IMG/VR virus record: IMGVR_UViG_3300032294_003095 | Length of the DNA stretch: 20,000 bases | Strand: one strand, 5' to 3' | DNA from: an uncultured virus (IMG/VR IMGVR_UViG_3300032294_003095) | Taxonomy: Duplodnaviria; Heunggongvirae; Uroviricota; Caudoviricetes | In this document: piece after piece, positions 1,455 to 18,536 of the stretch | Layout of the letters: each line of letters begins with the position of its first letter | Numbering within the stretch: the stretch's first letter is position 1 | Made by a program: the position numbers and the translations under genes | Notes under the pieces: generated by a model | The model's database searches: none | Told to the model about the DNA's origin: nothing | What the model saw: the letters and a program-made list of their open reading frames with translations, nothing else

Positions 1455-4400
1455 ATGGCTTATCAAATTAAAAATGGAAATATTGTTGCTAAAGATACTG
1501 AAGGAACCAATAGAAAGTTTCCACAGGCAAATGTCGATGTTGTTATATCAGAATGTCGAAGATTAGGTATAAATAACAAGTATATTATAGCTGGTATATT
1601 AGCAGTAATATCTAAAGAATCGGCATTTGTTCCGCAAAATGAAAATTTAAAGTATAGTGAAAAGGGACTAAAATCTACATTTGGAGATTATTTTAATCCA
1701 AGTAGAGCAAATGCTGCAGAATATGTCAAAAATCCTGAAAAAACTGCGAACTATGTTTATGGTGGAACCTGGGAGAATGGTAAATATAAATTGGGAAGAT
1801 ACGGTAATACCTCACCGGGCGATGGATTTAAATATAGAGGAAGAGGATTTAATCAAATTACATTCAAAGGATTATATGAGACATACAAGAAATTAATACC
1901 GTCAATTGTAACAAACCCAGATTTATTAAATAATCCAAAAGAGGCTGCAACTATCAATGCACAATTCTTTTTAAATAATTTTAAAAATTATGATAAAACA
2001 ATAAGAGCAAATTATGGTAGATCAGCACTTGATATTTCTGACTGGGATCAAGCTCTTAAACTGTGTGCTAATGCAAATGCTGGTCTGGGTAAAAGTCCAA
2101 ATAATCAAAAAGTTATCTGGGCATATGACAATTCAAAAAAATGTCACGGGTTCCTAATTGAATATTTGGAAAAAAATCCACAAGGTCAAGACTTTCCACC
2201 TAGTAATCCATCTAATGTGAATAATCAAACAGGCAGCGATCAACCAGTGGATAATACACAACCAACACCTGCTGAACAAGAAAATGCGGCACAAGGTGCA
2301 AATGAACAAGGTAATGATCCAAACAACAATAACACAAATTTAAATAACGGTCAACCTGTTACTATTTTAACACAGTTTTCAAAACCAACAATTGCACCTA
2401 CTAAAATTGAATTCAATCTTGAAGGATATACAAAAAAGGATAAAGAAAAACTATATAAACAACTTGGATACACACCATTTGTTTATTACAACGGAATTCC
2501 AATAGGGTATAAGGATGTAAAGAAGGTAAATCTTTTCCATAAAGGAATTCTACCAGCAATAGAATTATCTTTTGTTGATACTTGGGGTATTTTTAGAGAG
2601 GACGCATTTCCTACAGATGATGCTGTAATTACAATCTATATAAATTCGAGATCTAAAAATCTCAGAAGCATTCATATGGATTTTAAAATTATAGATTTTA
2701 AAGATAATAATGACAACTCATATTACATTGTGGGAATTTGTAACATTCCACAAATTTATCTAAGAAAGTTTAATAGCTATTCTGGAAAAACATCTGTCGA
2801 GGCATTACAAGAAGTTGCTAAACAATGTGAGATAGGATTTTGTTCAAATATTCAAAATAGTGATGATAAAATGACATGGATAAATACTGGATTCATGGTG
2901 AAAGATTTCATTGAGAATATAATTAATAACTCTTATGTATCAGAAACATCATATCAATATGTGTATATCGACTTCTATTATAATCTTTGTTATGTTGATA
3001 TTGGAAAAGAAATGGAGAGAGATGTCACTGGTGATAAAATGGTCGCCTCTTATGGATATAAATTCTTAGCCTCCGCTGAGGATGAGGAGAATCAAGAAAT
3101 TGACGAACAAGTGGTTGATATGGTTCTGCTAAATGATAAATCTATTAAAGACTCACCAGGATATATTGAAAATTTTGAATTGATTAATAAGTCAACAAAG
3201 GTATCTATCAATAAGGCTTATAGAACAAGAACTAAATATTATGATGTTATGAATAAAGAGTTATTGATATTTGATGTTGAATCACAGACATCAGATGGAA
3301 GTAAGTCAATAATTCTTAAATCTAAACCAGGTGATGATAAATTTTTCAAAGAAAATACAAATAATGTATATGTTGGAAAACAGGATATATTTAATGAAGG
3401 TGAGGGTAATGTTCATAAAAATTACAACTACTCTGTTTCTCAAAACAGACAAAATTTAGATGACATAACTAAGCTTTCAGCTAAAATGTATTTACCAAAT
3501 ACAAATTTTAATATCTATATCTATCAAAAGATTCAAATATTTTTCACACCACAAAAGCAAACTCCTTCTATACAAAATGCTTTTTATAAAAGAATATCTG
3601 GAGACTGGTTAATAACAAATTTAGAATTTGAGTATGAGAACGGTGCTTACTACCAAGTTGTTACAGCAATCAAGAGGGAATTGAGTCTTCTTCCTGATGA
3701 AATTGATAAATCAAGCCAATCAAGTAATAGAAGAAATGATGGTAACTCTGCTAACAATGTTAACCAATTATCACCAAATGACACAGCACCTAATGATCCA
3801 GCCGCTTTACAACAACCAAGTAATGTGGCAAATACTGCAAATCCAGATAGAGGAACTTCACCAGAATCTACCGATTCTCCAGCAAATGAGTTAAAAAATC
3901 CACCGGGTACTAATAATAAACTATTATACATAAGTAATAAAGGACTTAAATATATTATTAATCCATCAACCGGTGTAGGTGGTAAGAGACTTAAAAGACT
4001 CACCAGTGATTTACAAGCACATTTAAGAGCAAACGGGTATCCACAAGCTGAGATATCATCCAATGGTATAGTGAGAGATTTACAGGCTGCTGCATATCCA
4101 GGTTCCCCTAAAAGAGTAGCCGGATCACTTCATGGGTCTGGTTTAGCCATAGATGTTAAATTTACCATACCTGGTAAAAAATGGGACAGTATTGATGATA
4201 ATGTGAATTTATCGACTGATGCACAATTAACGAAAACAATTTGGAATTTTGTTGTTTCTCAAAAAGATATAAAATGGGGAGCTGAATTTGGTAAAAGCAG
4301 TCCCGCTAATGGAAATGTTAAAGCCAGAGGTATAACAGAATATCATCACTTCGAATTGAAAAAAGAATACATAAAACAATATTGGGATGAGTATTCAACA

Positions 4401-7385: not shown

Positions 7386-7931
7386 TTGCTAAATAAATCT
7401 GAAAAACTAATAATTTTAGGAAAATCTGGATCGGGTAAAGACTACCTAATGAGGAAACTTATAGAAGAAGGTCTTAAAGGATGTCTAAAAATGACTACTC
7501 GACCAATGAGAGTAAATGAAACTCAAAATGTGACTTATAATTTTGTCGATTTTGAAACTTTTAGTGAAAAAATAAACAATGATGAATTAATCTGTTATCA
7601 AAGATTCTCAGTCACTCCCATAGATAAATCTCCAGAAATTTGGTATTATGGAATAACTAAAGAAGAATTTAACAATTCACAAGTTTTCATAATGACACCA
7701 GGCGATCTATCACAAATAGATCCAGAAACAAGGAAAAAATGTTTTGTTGTTTACCTTGATATCGATAGGAGTATAAGAGAAAGTAGAATTCTTAAAAGAA
7801 ATGATAATAATGATTCAGTTCTTAGAAGATTAGACGCTGATGAAATAGATTTTCAAAATTTTAGAGATTATGATTTGAAGTTGACAGATCCTGAATTTTT
7901 AGCATCAGATGTTTTAAGCCTAATGGATTAA
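7386..7931 (+). CDS. gmk: Guanylate kinase
   Basis: P-loop GKSGSGKD, TTRPMRVNE...YNFV and WYYG motifs typical of Gmk; TTG start. Confidence 0.88.
   Translation: MLNKSEKLIILGKSGSGKDYLMRKLIEEGLKGCLKMTTRPMRVNETQNVTYNFVDFETFSEKINNDELICYQRFSVTPIDKSPEIWYYGITKEEFNNSQVFIMTPGDLSQIDPETRKKCFVVYLDIDRSIRESRILKRNDNNDSVLRRLDADEIDFQNFRDYDLKLTDPEFLASDVLSLMD

Positions 7932-12568: not shown

Positions 12569-12569
<1 letters not shown>
11937..12569 (+). CDS. Hypothetical protein with near-N-terminal KKISGFKKFTE motif
   Basis: 210-aa ORF with TAATATATA at 11905-11913. Confidence 0.7.
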
Positions 12570-14163
<1,594 letters not shown>

Positions 14164-15642: not shown

Positions 15643-16286
15643 ATCTCTAATAGTTTTTTATCTCCATTAAGTTCTTCAAGTAAAGCTCTCTCACCGTGTA
15701 GTTCTTTGACTTTTTGAAGCCATTCTTTTGTTTTAACTTTTACCATCCAGACTTCATCTTTTTGATTTTTTGTTTTCAAAACACCCTTAACAATAACACC
15801 TTCTTTTAGATTGTATTGATTGTCACGGATTGTTTGAACAAAATCCATTGTATAAGGACCCTTGTAAATAACATCAGGAATGTGTAGATGTCCAAAATCT
15901 TCAACAAATTCATAAGGTGAAATTATACCTCTTTTATATTGGTGTATATCAAAAATTACAACGTCTTTTTCTTCATTTGTATGCCTTCCTGAAAATGAAT
16001 TTTCACCAAAAAACTCACCAAATACAACAAAAGTATCCACACTTCTATATTTTTTTCGGAAAACTCTTTCAATATCATCAGAATACTTGTTAAGAAATAT
16101 ATCTATTGAGTGACCAAATATTTCGTCATTTTGGTCTATGAGGTTATTTCTAGTTCCAAATTTATAGAACCCTCTATTACTATTCCACTGAAACCTCACA
16201 TTAGAACCGTCTATTTTGTCGAAGGCTATGCAATATCTGCCAAATTCTATTTTGTTATAGTAGTCTATTTTATTATATCTTTCCAT
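15639..16286 (-). CDS. Second RNA ligase family protein (nucleotidyltransferase domain only)
   Basis: Motifs I FDKIDGSN, III VFGEF, IIIa VIFDI, IV KEGVIVK and V VKVKT. Confidence 0.82.
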   Translation of the reverse strand: MERYNKIDYYNKIEFGRYCIAFDKIDGSNVRFQWNSNRGFYKFGTRNNLIDQNDEIFGHSIDIFLNKYSDDIERVFRKKYRSVDTFVVFGEFFGENSFSGRHTNEEKDVVIFDIHQYKRGIISPYEFVEDFGHLHIPDVIYKGPYTMDFVQTIRDNQYNLKEGVIVKGVLKTKNQKDEVWMVKVKTKEWLQKVKELHGERALLEELNGDKKLLEI

Positions 16287-17338
16287 AGTTTGTGCCTTTT
16301 TGATGAATTTATACTTCTCTTAGTTATACAAAGATTATCAATATGACATATTTCATCTACTGAAATGTCATTTATGAATCCATAATAAATAGATATTTTA
16401 TGGTCAATAGTCGGATAATTTTTATCAGTATTTTTAAGACTTAAATATGTCTTAATGAACTCACCATCATAATAGTCATGTCCATCCCATTTCTCAAATA
16501 ATCTATTTTTAATTTTACTCGTCAGTCTTCTACATTCTCTTTTATACAAGTCAAATGGTAGTAGCAAGTTATCGGGAACTACAAGTCCCTTTTCTATTAA
16601 AGATTTTCTAGATTTTTCCTTTATTTGTAAGTTGTTTTTAAAAAAGTCACTTTGGAACAAATAATCACATCCATACTTTTCATTATTTTTCTTAATAATT
16701 TTATCTTTAATTTCTTCATTTTTTAAAGGATGTCCACCGTAATTTTCATACCAAGTCTCATTCCTCTTTTTATTACATTTATCTAAAAATACTTCTCTCT
16801 CTTCTTTACTCATTTTTTTCCACATAATTTTTGAATTTAAGGAAAAAAGATCACTCTTTGTTAAACCATACTTGTCTAAGTAATAGTTGTCATTATTTAT
16901 TTTATCTATAACCTGTTTTATTTGAAAAACATTATCTACTCCATATTTTTCTTTCACTGTACTATTTTTTTTATCATATTTAATAGTGCCTTTTGATAAA
17001 ACATTTTTAGCTCCATATTTTTTAAAATTGGTCTTCTCTCTTTTATCCATAGAAGATATGGCAGCTGCTGAATACCCTCTCTTGGATATATTATATTGTT
17101 CTAACATAAACAATGTTAAATTATAAGAGACTCCGTATTTTTCCTTTATATCAGGTAATGACATTTTTTTATTAACATAGACATCTAACAAGTTATCATA
17201 TGTAAATATGTTTGGAAAATTATATTCTAAGTACATCCTTTTTAGTTCATTTAAAGGTATGTTATTTTTATTTTCTTTGCAATATTTCAAATGGTTCTGG
17301 CTAGAATCTTTATCACACAAAGGACATTTTTTATTCAT
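16265..17338 (-). CDS. Putative free-standing HNH homing endonuclease with KYG repeats
   Basis: N-terminal CPLC, repeated T/N-x-x-K/E-KYG-x-x-N units, and C-terminal TIDHKISI...NLCITKRSINSSK (HNH-type). It has its own TTATATATA motif at 17351-17359. Confidence 0.7.
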   Translation of the reverse strand: MNKKCPLCDKDSSQNHLKYCKENKNNIPLNELKRMYLEYNFPNIFTYDNLLDVYVNKKMSLPDIKEKYGVSYNLTLFMLEQYNISKRGYSAAAISSMDKREKTNFKKYGAKNVLSKGTIKYDKKNSTVKEKYGVDNVFQIKQVIDKINNDNYYLDKYGLTKSDLFSLNSKIMWKKMSKEEREVFLDKCNKKRNETWYENYGGHPLKNEEIKDKIIKKNNEKYGCDYLFQSDFFKNNLQIKEKSRKSLIEKGLVVPDNLLLPFDLYKRECRRLTSKIKNRLFEKWDGHDYYDGEFIKTYLSLKNTDKNYPTIDHKISIYYGFINDISVDEICHIDNLCITKRSINSSKRHKLWKDIIK

Positions 17339-17376
17339 GATTTTTATATTTATATATAAAATTAACGACCTTCCGT

Positions 17377-17595
17377 CTAACTTTCAAAATCTTTATTTAA
17401 TTCATTTTTAATCCACTCTTTAAGCTGATGCTTTTCAGAGCGTTTTACACTTCTTTTCTCTCTTTCAAGATCTTTTTTGATTTTCTTAACCATATTCGGA
17501 TCTTGTATAAAACGGAGAGCTCGTTTTCTTTTCTTTATATCTTGGACTTTTTCTTCATATGTGTTTTCAAAGTCCTCATTATCAATTGTTTTCAT
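17377..17595 (-). CDS. Small highly charged (K/R/E-rich) protein; first gene after the attenuator
   Basis: 72-aa ORF starting ~28 nt after the second terminator, with an A-rich leader. Confidence 0.65.
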   Translation of the reverse strand: MKTIDNEDFENTYEEKVQDIKKRKRALRFIQDPNMVKKIKKDLEREKRSVKRSEKHQLKEWIKNELNKDFES

Positions 17596-17623
17596 ATCTG
17601 TTTAATTTTTTTGATTTGTGCAT

Positions 17624-17653
17624 AAAAAACCCAGTTGTTCGAACTAACTGGGT
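17624..17653 (-). terminator. Intrinsic terminator T2 of tandem pair
   Basis: ACCCAGTT-A-GTTCGAAC-AACTGGGT followed by TTTTT. Confidence 0.85.
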
Positions 17654-17686
17654 AAAAAAACCCAGTCAACTTGTGATTGACTGGGT
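17654..17686 (-). terminator. Intrinsic terminator T1 of tandem pair
   Basis: ACCCAGTCAA-TCACAAG-TTGACTGGGT followed by TTTTTT. Confidence 0.88.
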
Positions 17687-17715
17687 AGATATGGTTATAG
17701 CACTACTGACCTCGG

Positions 17716-17751
17716 TCAATCATTTCTGAATATGTAGTACATTACTTTCAT
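17716..17751 (-). CDS. Putative 11-aa attenuator leader peptide MKVMYYIFRND
   Basis: ATG AAA GTA ATG TAC TAC ATA TTC AGA AAT GAT TGA lies between the promoter and the terminators. The stop codon sits inside a segment complementary to the 5' arm of T1. Confidence 0.65.
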   Translation of the reverse strand: MKVMYYIFRND

Positions 17752-17786
17752 TTTTCTGTGTCTTTATTTATTATTTATTTATAATA

Positions 17787-17817
17787 CAAATATACAAAAA
17801 GTTTTAAAACTTCCAAA
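17787..17817 (-). promoter_or_regulatory. Bacteroidota-type primary sigma promoter (-33 TTTG, -7 TAnnTTTG)
   Basis: TTTG (17817-17814), 19-nt spacer, TATATTTG (17794-17787); this matches the known Bacteroides/Flavobacterium consensus and spacing. Confidence 0.75.
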
Positions 17818-17823
17818 TTATTT

Positions 17824-18483
17824 TTACCATCCAATGTTTTTACTCAAGTTGGCGTTAAATCCACCAAAGTGTTTAAATAGTCTATCTTTCATATACTCGC
17901 CTGCCGCGCCATGAAATAGTTTATTGTCAGAACTACCATGTCTCCATAGATATGCCAATTCTCTATGAGACATTGAATCTATTTTTTCTTTATCTTCTGT
18001 AGATAATTCTTCTATATTTTCATTAATAAATCTATTAAACTCTTTAACATGAGTCAATTTTTGATCTTTTGCCAAAAATTCTTCACTTGATAACTTCTTA
18101 CTTGAAGGTTCTCTATATTGACCCTTCTTAGGAGTTTCAGCCAAGTGATCTTCACTTGATAGATTTGAATTATTAGGCTTTTTAGAAGAAACATGGTCTT
18201 GCTTCTTCATATCTTTTGATAGTTTTTGATCTTTGTGATTTATCTCTTTGTGAGCTTCATTGAAAGAGTCAAAAGTCATTACATTACTTTCTTTAACCTT
18301 TTCTGGAAGATTTTTATGCTTAGTTTTTGCAAAATCTCTTAATTGTTTTTCAGTCATTGATTTAGCTAATTTTTTTATCTCATCAGCATAATCTGGATTC
18401 AAGTCTTTAGCCTTTACTTCACCTCTTTTATAAGCAAGTGCTTGACCCATTAATCTTTGTTGTGTTTTTGAAACAGATGGCAT
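17824..18483 (-). CDS. DUF3008-like domain protein with C-terminal extension
   Basis: N-terminus MPSVSKTQQRLMGQALAYKRGE...SMTEKQLRDFAKTKHKNLPEKV resembles DUF3008. Internal short repeats (KDQKL, LSSE); TAATATATA at 18506-18514. Confidence 0.7.
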   Translation of the reverse strand: MPSVSKTQQRLMGQALAYKRGEVKAKDLNPDYADEIKKLAKSMTEKQLRDFAKTKHKNLPEKVKESNVMTFDSFNEAHKEINHKDQKLSKDMKKQDHVSSKKPNNSNLSSEDHLAETPKKGQYREPSSKKLSSEEFLAKDQKLTHVKEFNRFINENIEELSTEDKEKIDSMSHRELAYLWRHGSSDNKLFHGAAGEYMKDRLFKHFGGFNANLSKNIGW

Positions 18484-18536
18484 ATATAGATAGTTAATTT
18501 TCTATTATATATTAACTTCTATAAGTTAGATTTTAG

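Follow-up and report, generated by a model that had tools for sequence, protein, structure and literature searches.

A probable leader-peptide transcription attenuator with two interlocked terminators ahead of an RNA ligase operon in an uncultured phage

The subject of this study is a short regulatory cassette in a 20,000-nucleotide stretch of DNA, here called the window, from an uncultured virus of the Caudoviricetes (IMG/VR record IMGVR_UViG_3300032294_003095). The cassette is carried on the minus strand, as are all features of the window described below unless marked (+). It occupies an intergenic stretch of 230 nt between a DUF3008 gene (18483-17824) and an open reading frame (ORF) for a 72-amino-acid (aa) protein (17595-17377), beyond which lie two RNA ligase genes. 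A first-pass annotation, made from the sequence alone, had described it as a leader-peptide attenuator. The promoter box, the leader ORF, the antiterminator strand and both terminators of that description were all found where it had placed them.

The cassette begins with a putative host-type, Bacteroidetes-like promoter (17787-17817), which consists of TTTG at 17817-17814, a 19-nt spacer and TATATTTG at 17794-17787. The first ATG past the promoter box, 35 nt downstream, opens a leader ORF of 11 codons plus a stop (17751-17716; ATG AAA GTA ATG TAC TAC ATA TTC AGA AAT GAT TGA). The ATG is at 17751, the TGA is at 17718-17716, and the predicted leader peptide is MKVMYYIFRND. Codons 5 and 6 are tandem Tyr codons, TAC TAC (17734-17739), and are the proposed regulatory codons. 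The antiterminator 5' strand, TGATTGACCGAGGT (17722-17709), spans the leader stop codon. It is enclosed by a leader hairpin, P1 (17740-17700), the candidate anti-antiterminator, in which GUACUAC (17740-17734) pairs with GUAGUGC (17706-17700) and an inner hairpin joins UGAC (17718-17715) to GUCA (17710-17707). Two terminators follow in tandem. The stem of T1 lies at 17686-17660 (ACCCAGTCAAT, CACAA, GTTGACTGGGT) and is followed by 7 T, a run that ends at 17654. The stem of T2 lies at 17653-17629 (ACCCAGTT...AACTGGGT), with a T run to 17624.

The first regulated gene encodes the 72-aa protein, which is rich in Lys and Arg and belongs to no known family. No function was obtained for it from the protein atlas, NCBIfam or Pfam, and it gave no match when searched singly in viral contigs or as an alignment in genome contigs. 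Inside the operon there follows a 357-aa DUF7487/homing-endonuclease-like gene (16265-17338; Pfam PF24308, 1.6e-8; PHROG homing endonuclease, 4.6e-12), which is probably an insertion; its protein, used as a query, returned 3 distant loci. RNA ligase 1 (215 aa, 16286-15639; PF09414, 1.7e-11, 45 bits) and RNA ligase 2 (230 aa, 15203-14511; PF09414, 1.7e-26, 93.8 bits) are separated by two small ORFs of 92 aa and 55 aa. Both ligases exceed the PF09414 cut-off of 27 bits, which assigns them the nucleotidyltransferase domain of the RNA_ligase family, and both also match PHROG 548 RNA ligase. Their match to the Rnl2 model TIGR02307 is weak (23.7 bits against a cut-off of 197), and a search of solved structures by sequence gave no relative for either. 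Only 28 nt separate T2 from the ATG of the 72-aa gene. This leaves no space for a promoter of its own, and transcription of the operon must therefore cross T1 and T2.

The segment around the leader stop had been claimed to pair perfectly over 8 bp with the 5' arm of T1, and it does. The antiterminator core TGATTGAC (17722-17715) is the exact complement of GTCAATCA (17681-17674), which is made up of T1 5' arm and loop bases, and pairing of 17722-17709 with 17686-17674 excludes T1. The strongest duplex of the leader with the T1 5' arm and loop has an energy of -13.3 kcal/mol, compared with -7.0 +/- 2.0 in 1000 dinucleotide-shuffled leaders (P=0.010). T1 itself has 11 bp and -16.0 kcal/mol; T2 has -10.7 kcal/mol. 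The hairpin pair ACCCAGT...ACTGGGT occurs 2 times in the window, in T1 and in T2, against 0.01 expected, and the T1 3' arm (17668-17660) can pair with the T2 5' arm (17653-17645) in a 9-bp hairpin of -13.5 kcal/mol, the 4:5 hairpin. Since this hairpin is more stable than T2, the two terminators are interlocked, as the first-pass annotation had described them. When the antiterminator was forced, the optimal fold held the 4:5 hairpin and T2 was absent. The whole region folds 4.4 standard deviations better than shuffled sequences.

Relatives of the cassette were then compared. A DNA search via the ligase genes identified two uncultured huge phages, LR745206.1 (634,780 bp) and LR756502.1 (642,428 bp), each with a homologous cassette in the intergenic space ahead of its gene for a 72-aa protein homologue; the exact terminator pattern occurs once in each of these two ~640-kb genomes. 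Further relatives were obtained from pattern scans and protein-anchored scans. Altogether, 19 different cassettes of full length and 3 partial cassettes were collected, which fall into six types (A-F). Type A resembles the window in having two terminators and the leader MK[VT]MYYIFRND (the window, L135, L130 and L133), and T2 is confined to this subfamily. Type B (nine sequences) has one terminator and the leader MKxLHTYKIxIDWG. Type C has the leaders MKVTKTTLRIIMIDLTSQ and MKVTKYTTNYDLIDFMSQ (L151, to which L152 is identical here, and L154), while types D, E and F are represented by L134, by L125, and by L147 and L150. The partial cassettes L131, L132 and L137 were excluded from alignments A2 and A5, as were the F-type sequences and the duplicates L124 (=L089), L128 (=L111), L140 (=L122) and L152 (=L151 in this stretch); L135, one base off the window, and the E-type L125 were excluded from A5. 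When viral contigs were scanned for the exact hairpin, 38 loci matched. Three of these are family members; among the matches listed, the other 35 showed no GATTGAC-plus-T-run context.

A small basic protein gene follows the cassette in every type, either directly or after one inserted gene, which is of the HNH/homing-endonuclease kind or, in L147, an ORF without identification. The pair of PF09414 ligases lies downstream in types A, B, C and E wherever the DNA extends that far, and one ligase is seen on the short type D contig. The promoter box TA.ATTTGT does not vary in 14/14 aligned relatives, in which its flanks are variable; such a box fits the prediction that phages with genomes >634 kb infect Bacteroidetes (PMC7162821). 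A short ORF starts at the homologous ATG in 14/14 aligned cassettes, despite frame changes and indels, and its stop sits 25-36 nt before T1 in all 14. The motif GATTGAC is kept in three reading frames (GAT TGA in the window, ATT GAC in most B-type cassettes and TTG ACT in L122), so that the constraint acts on the RNA and not on the peptide sequence.

Complementarity between the antiterminator strand and T1 was compared with 1000 shuffles in nine representatives. It was significant in 6/9, from 4/6 types (A, B, C and D): 0/1000 shuffles in each of two B-type cassettes, P=0.006 and 0.058 in type C, and P=0.003 in type D, where L134 has a register-shifted antiterminator of 10 bp that uses terminator-loop bases. 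In L144 part of the T1 3' arm has diverged or been lost, yet AATC, which pairs with the antiterminator strand, is kept; in L136 an A-U pair stands where other cassettes have G-C. By column counts, 83.8% (A2) and 85.5% (A5) of antiterminator cells are paired, versus 10-40% in slid controls. For T1 the corresponding values are 97.4% (A2) and 98.5% (A5, 15 relatives), and T1 shows one A-U to U-A compensation in two C-type sequences, a covariation score that 10/500 shuffles reach. The covariation counts of the antiterminator and of T1 are thus marginal at best.

The leader hairpin P1 has a predicted stability of -10.3 to -11.5 kcal/mol, and in the window its 5' strand consists of the Tyr-Tyr codons. 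In per-sequence folds the 5' strand of P1 falls within leader codons 4-9. P1-like hairpins of other sequence are found in types B, C and D (B-type helices, P=0.002-0.08 each), and in L138 an insertion lengthens P1 by 7 bp. Before the T1 3' arm has been made, the antiterminator is the minimum-energy fold in 12/14 cassettes; after that, the combination of P1 and T1 is more stable in every case. Estimated refolding barriers in 8/8 representatives were 10-17 kcal/mol from P1 to the antiterminator (13.1 kcal/mol in the window) and 12-16 kcal/mol from the antiterminator to the terminator. With barriers this high, the first helix to form should last through the passage of the polymerase over the T run, and the switch would be a kinetic one.

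The positions at which a ribosome would leave the antiterminator free were computed on the assumption that it covers -15 to +12 nt, counted from the first base of the codon in its A site; this footprint model was fixed before the sister cassettes described below were seen. In the window, a ribosome with its A site anywhere from codon 2 to codon 6 leaves room for the full 8-bp antiterminator core; at codons 7-8 only a shorter core can pair, and from codon 9 up to the stop there is none. All 6/6 representatives behave alike, with a full antiterminator at codons 2-5 or 2-6, a weaker one over the next 1-2 codons, and none before the stop is reached. Tyr5 and Tyr6 are thus the last A-site positions that leave the antiterminator strand of the window free. 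The same rule that picks MKVM-YY in the window picks ..LHT in type B and Thr-rich strings in types C and D. It also shortens the list of leader codons that the first-pass annotation had offered as sensors of tRNA damage. The Tyr pair is retained, lying at the boundary; stalls at Arg9, Asn10 or Asp11 would mask the antiterminator, and these codons were dropped; Lys2 is a permissive position, distant from the boundary.

The outcome proposed for each ribosome position was likewise revised in part. An early stall would still give read-through and a ribosome at the stop codon, which covers the antiterminator strand, would still give termination. The suggestion that a ribosome that never loads also allows read-through is not borne out, because P1 forms on an untranslated leader, behind a barrier of ~13 kcal/mol, and termination is predicted. 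Only an early stall reads through under the model.

The strongest support for an attenuator comes from other places in the two huge phages. A covariance model of the cassette, R1, recovered the known copy in each of five records. Of its weaker matches in the two ~640-kb genomes, 16 were inspected, and these comprised 10 sister cassettes and 6 ordinary gene-end terminators (L242-L244 and L246-L248), the latter being excluded from the cassette count. The ten sister cassettes have the same geometry and unrelated sequences, and they precede either tRNA arrays (L226:1490-1607, L245, L239, L240, L235 and L227) or aminoacyl-tRNA synthetase genes (L232/L236, L241, L233/L237 and L234/L238). The leader MTTTQQIQQQQINQTD, which ends at its stop codon, stands before three tRNA-Gln(ttg) genes, and MTTSFQQQQQQQINRTD, also ending at a stop, before four tRNA-Gln genes. 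A leader with ..SYESYYEEG.. precedes a tRNA-Glu/Tyr array, one with ..PVNPQPQDQDP.. precedes tRNA-Pro and four tRNA-Asp genes, and two that are rich in Ile(AUA), Gly and Ala precede tRNA-Ile(tat) and tRNA-Gly. Among the synthetases, the leader MKNIRLNDDRFLLTNCKADW and its orthologue precede a non-discriminating AspRS gene (NF003483, 473.8 bits, cut-off 353), MKTINLNNLVVVNVSV, with VVV, precedes a ValRS-like gene, and MKTMTINNRNRLTDII, with INNRNR, precedes an AsnRS gene (at or above two NCBIfam cut-offs) and then an ArgRS-like gene.

Each sister leader is complementary to the 5' arm of its own terminator (10/10, P=0.000-0.046), and the stop-to-terminator spacing is 22-35 nt. In the two AspRS orthologues a three-way compensatory change involves the antiterminator strand, the terminator 5' arm and the terminator 3' arm. 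With the footprint model, the last six permissive codons of the ten cassettes read QIQQQQ, QQQQQQ, YESYYE, QPQDQD, AVIGNG, IAIGAG, IRLNDD, KLKDDR, NNLVVV and INNRNR. In 10/10 the end of the cognate-codon cluster coincides with the last permissive codon or lies at most 2 codons from it. That cognate codons should end at a boundary computed in this way is explained only by a ribosome that translates the leader and stalls on it.

By analogy with these sister cassettes, we consider it probable that the element in the window is a ribosome-mediated (leader-peptide) transcription attenuator that gates the small basic protein gene and the two RNA ligase genes. The attenuation logic of the first-pass annotation is thus upheld by the anatomy of the locus, by conservation before the RNA ligase operon of relatives and by the codon matching of the sister cassettes. 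We infer that the leader is translated and that its translation is coupled to transcription. Transcription would start at the host-type promoter, and the RNA would fold according to where on the 11-codon leader the ribosome stands. If no ribosome were present, P1 would form first and lock the antiterminator strand, T1 and T2 would form, and transcription would stop. If a ribosome stood at the stop codon, it would cover the antiterminator strand, and transcription would again stop at T1 and T2. If a ribosome stalled early, with its A site no further along than Tyr5 or Tyr6 (UAC UAC), it would open P1, and the TGATTGAC... strand would be free to pair with the T1 5' arm. The T1 3' arm, freed in its turn, would pair with the T2 5' arm. 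Both terminators would be turned off by this one decision, and RNA polymerase would enter the operon.

A number of observations weigh against this interpretation, and they are given here together with the other explanations that were considered. The full transcript at equilibrium always favours the terminators, and terminators with CCCAGTCA...TGACTGGG stems are common at gene ends in these phages. Such strong hairpins of a widespread type are what would be expected of a constitutive promoter-proximal tandem terminator, or of a non-coding or micro-peptide RNA gene of ~100-130 nt that ends at T1/T2, with the downstream genes living on leaky read-through and with the ORF and the 8-bp complementarity arising as by-products of AT-richness and of a terminator arm copied upstream. 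The antiterminator strand does look like a copy of the terminator 3' arm, and the covariation of the antiterminator is not significant (its score is reached by 103/500 shuffles in A2 and by 139/500 in A5). The core pairs never vary, however, and are therefore uninformative for covariation either way. An Rfam 15 scan of 17000-18500 (E up to 10) yielded no family, T-box included, at its gathering score; the best score, anti-hemB at 21.9 bits against a gathering score of 49.5, is one of several weak small-RNA-like matches that reflect likeness to terminators only. On the other hand, the complementarity extends into loop bases that the 3' arm leaves unpaired (window, L134 and L144), 4/6 types either retain it or have restored it in a different register, and it recurs with unrelated sequences in 10/10 sister cassettes. 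The operon, with its 28 nt after T2, also depends on passage through both terminators. We regard a constitutive terminator or a small RNA gene as very unlikely. The invariance of the T1 stem had been considered as a sign of a three-way pairing constraint. This argument was withdrawn, because the same type of stem is widespread at ordinary gene ends. Gene-end terminators in LR745206.1 and LR756502.1 (L243, L244, L246, L247 and L248) reuse near-identical stems, CCCAGTCA...TGACTGGG or CCCAATCA...TGATTGGG, and a stereotyped terminator sequence seems to be used throughout the genomes of these two phages.

Further adverse points concern the folds, the promoter and the outlying cassette types. The refolding barriers come from a heuristic path search. 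RNAalifold recovered only 3 pairs of P1 on the MAFFT alignment A3, because the 3' strands, which vary in length, were misaligned; P1 was then assessed by per-sequence folds and duplex tests instead. The box TAnnTTTG, which we take to be the Bacteroidetes-type promoter consensus, occurs in the window no more often than expected by chance (33 against 33.3), so that the weight of the promoter box rests on its invariance in relatives. In the type E cassette L125 antiterminator complementarity is absent (P=0.998), and 4 nt separate the promoter box from the ATG. In type F the complementarity is weak (P=0.07-0.11) and the ORF ends far upstream of the candidate strand. On conservation in related phages, which the first-pass annotation had named as a check, the leader ORF is kept in 14/14 aligned cassettes and the antiterminator complementarity in 4/6 types, and the antiterminator covariation falls short of significance.

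The leader ORF itself must also be weighed. A closed ORF of at least 9 codons that begins with ATG arises in 8-50% of shuffled leaders, so the presence of an ORF alone is not rare by chance, and the conservation of GATTGAC as nucleotides in three frames means that the peptide sequence is not under selection. The short ORF could then be incidental, and the same hairpins could form an RNA switch set by a trans-acting factor. Candidates for such a factor would be the 72-aa Lys/Arg-rich protein, by autoregulation, a tRNA, or a late phage antiterminator protein; the linkage of the small basic protein gene, which has no known family, to the cassette in all types is in keeping with the first of these. 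Several features do not fit a trans-acting factor. The apical loops differ in every type, and there is no conserved loop or junction that could serve as a binding pocket, to which may be added the lack of an Rfam match, T-boxes included, at gathering score. The start and length of the ORF and its stop-to-terminator spacing are kept across indels, and the ten sister cassettes place their cognate codons at the footprint boundary. Some relatives retain the small protein gene and lack the cassette. In L153 the same promoter, TATATTTGTA, lies directly before the gene (about 3200-3270), with no leader or terminator, and in L126 and L129/L148 the gene lies inside a longer operon, L126 and L129 being without a cassette. 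These loci count against the attenuator as a fixed companion of the gene as well, and indicate that it is an optional module. Control of the hairpins by a trans-acting factor is, in our judgement, improbable.

If the element is an attenuator, what it senses must be considered separately. The tandem UAC UAC codons are proposed as the regulatory codons, and the signal is most likely slow decoding of Tyr codons, that is, a low level of functional Tyr-tRNA. Slow decoding may be caused by cleavage of tRNA-Tyr by a host nuclease, by amino-acid supply or by general translation stress. The only repeated sense codons in the leader are the two Tyr codons, no Tyr-specific gene is encoded in the window operon (Pfam, PHROG), and although the regulatory codons are placed at the boundary, a cognate relation to the operon is not evident, clear as it is in 10/10 sister cassettes. 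The boundary codons also vary with the type of cassette (Tyr-Tyr, His-Thr or Thr-rich). An attenuator of this kind might be a general sensor of translation health, with no specificity for Tyr or for tRNA damage, that responds to starvation, toxins or ribosome-targeting agents that slow early elongation; the translation-stress attenuator of bmrCD works in this way (PMC4191407). Set against such a general sensor are the clearly specific boundary codons of the 10 sister cassettes, the location of UAC UAC exactly at the boundary and a feature of type B. In 10/10 B-type loci a truncated HisRS-like gene of ~210 aa lies between the two ligases (for example L084:5075-5707). It matches the hisS model below cut-off (E=3e-45), corresponds to the catalytic core's N-terminal half and is missing from the window and from the non-B types as far as the examined DNA extends. 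The regulatory boundary of B-type leaders is occupied by a His codon, which hints at a link between that codon and the HisRS-like gene in the operon; the B-type loci are a single lineage, and L125 has two His codons and no such gene. We would call a general sensor a possibility, though a rather doubtful one.

On the view that the leader is a Tyr-sensing attenuator, a more specific proposal can be made. The leader may be a sensor of tRNA status, such that loss of decodable tRNA-Tyr stalls a ribosome at UAC UAC and switches on a ligase repair operon that is one member of a phage-wide cognate-codon regulon; other members would gate the tRNA arrays and the synthetase genes of the phage itself. We put this forward tentatively, as possible and not as the expected outcome, and the sensing of nuclease-cut tRNA by the leader is speculative. 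By its anatomy, the cassette is a predicted member of the set of attenuators by which these phages control translation-related genes.

Leader-peptide attenuation is textbook knowledge for bacterial amino-acid operons, with trpL, hisL, pheL and pheM-pheST as the classical enterobacterial attenuators. The cassette resembles all of these in its promoter-proximal short ORF, in a hairpin that sequesters the antiterminator, in an antiterminator and an intrinsic terminator that are mutually exclusive, in regulatory codons whose location lets a stalled ribosome set the antiterminator free, and in the termination predicted for both fully translated and untranslated leaders. As in trpL, there are two tandem regulatory codons. 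It differs from them in being encoded by a phage, with a Bacteroidetes-type promoter and no Shine-Dalgarno sequence, in an output of RNA ligases and not of the pathway for the sensed amino acid, in an antiterminator strand that overlaps the stop codon and in two terminators chained by the 4:5 hairpin. No sequence or Rfam relationship to the classical attenuators was found, for which modelling (PMC1183508) and a study of pheL (PMC3082878) are available. With the attenuators that sense translation stress the cassette shares the principle that stalling on a leader ORF, and not the supply of a pathway amino acid, turns on genes that cope with damaged translation. PA5471.1-armZ of Pseudomonas aeruginosa is one such system. 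Another is bmrB-bmrCD of Bacillus subtilis (PMC4191407). Both respond to ribosome-targeting antibiotics and control bacterial efflux or ribosome-rescue genes, whereas the element here belongs to a phage, its context is RNA repair, and codon specificity is seen in the sister cassettes.

The rtcBA RNA-repair operon controlled by RtcR (PMC7790460, PMC10159003) is also an RNA-ligase operon, and damaged tRNA has been proposed as the cue for its expression. Its regulator RtcR, a sigma-54 activator, binds tRNA fragments through a CARF-like sensor and acts on initiation, whereas the phage cassette would act by termination and read-through; Pfam scans of 26 window ORFs revealed no RtcR-type regulator, that is, no sigma-54 activator with a CARF-like sensor. 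In phage T4, tRNA repair by Pnkp/Rnl1 counters the PrrC anticodon nuclease. As in T4, ATP-dependent RNA ligases of a phage lie beside tRNA genes and plausibly counter host tRNA cleavage. Unlike in T4, for which an attenuator is not known to have been described, the ligases are preceded by a probable one, and no polynucleotide kinase/phosphatase was recognised among the operon genes of the window in Pfam, PHROG and NCBIfam scans. PrrC is treated in PMC1484252 and PMC1950546, and jumbo phages often encode several Rnl-type ligases (PMC7824862). The string 'attenuat' does not occur in the main text of that jumbo-phage RNA-repair survey, nor do 'attenuat', 'leader' or 'terminator' in the main text of the huge-phage paper PMC7162821, and full-text literature searches found no leader-peptide attenuator for phages, RNA-repair genes or tRNA genes. 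The class of mechanism is known; what is new is the phage setting, the RNA ligase output, the chained terminators and a connection with cognate-codon control of tRNA arrays. Attenuators that gate tRNA genes through their own codons appear to be undescribed.

Some further features of these loci were recorded. Upstream of the DUF3008 gene the window carries an HNH gene (19821-19108) and genes for tRNA-Arg(gcg) and tRNA-Ser(gga) (18706-18536). A gathering scan of the whole window with Rfam found two tRNAs and nothing else. Two class-II tRNA-like sequences were seen by eye at ~19117-19029 and ~19954-19868, with the acceptor stem GGAGAG...CTCTCC, the T-arm GATTCGAG or GATCGATAC, a long variable arm and the Ser-like anticodon loops CU-GCU-AA and CU-UGA-AA. 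They were called neither by ARAGORN nor by the Rfam tRNA model, and the first shares bases with the stop codon of the HNH ORF. On the plus strand are genes for an adenylosuccinate synthetase (12946-14163 (+); PF00709, 2.8e-139), an Fe-S cluster assembly protein (12569-12895 (+)) and a guanylate-kinase-like protein (7386-7931 (+)), which are typical metabolic cargo of huge phages. When the DUF3008 neighbour was used as an anchor, none of 80 loci showed shared synteny or the hairpin motif, and this anchor was dropped.

In the relatives, several tRNA-Lys genes of unusual length, 82-89 nt, lie in arrays closely upstream of the B-type cassette (L084:2943-3208, L085:1416-1685). In the Asp/Pro array of LR745206.1, ARAGORN called a tRNA with a four-base anticodon (gtag; L226:1216-1289, L240:865-938), which is possibly a frameshift-type tRNA or else a miscall. 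HNH/homing-endonuclease-like insertions are located between the terminator and the small-protein gene at L122/L140, L130/L132, L134 and L154, and also occur at L133:2321-2983 and at 17338-16265 of the window. By inserting downstream of the attenuator, homing-type genes are placed under the same control, and this site looks like an insertion hot spot for them.

If the attenuators are real, huge phages regulate their spare translation parts by the speed of the ribosome at chosen codons. Why and when these phages use their tRNAs, synthetases and RNA ligases would then become directly testable, since the leaders name the codons of each module. The chained two-terminator design would be a compact, portable switch for Bacteroidetes-type hosts. 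Should the tRNA-status proposal also be true, relatives of the window cassette would sense tRNA-His/Thr or tRNA-Thr, and the loss that is sensed could stem from a host anticodon nuclease. A phage of this kind would gauge the failing decoding parts of its host codon by codon, and replace or repair those.

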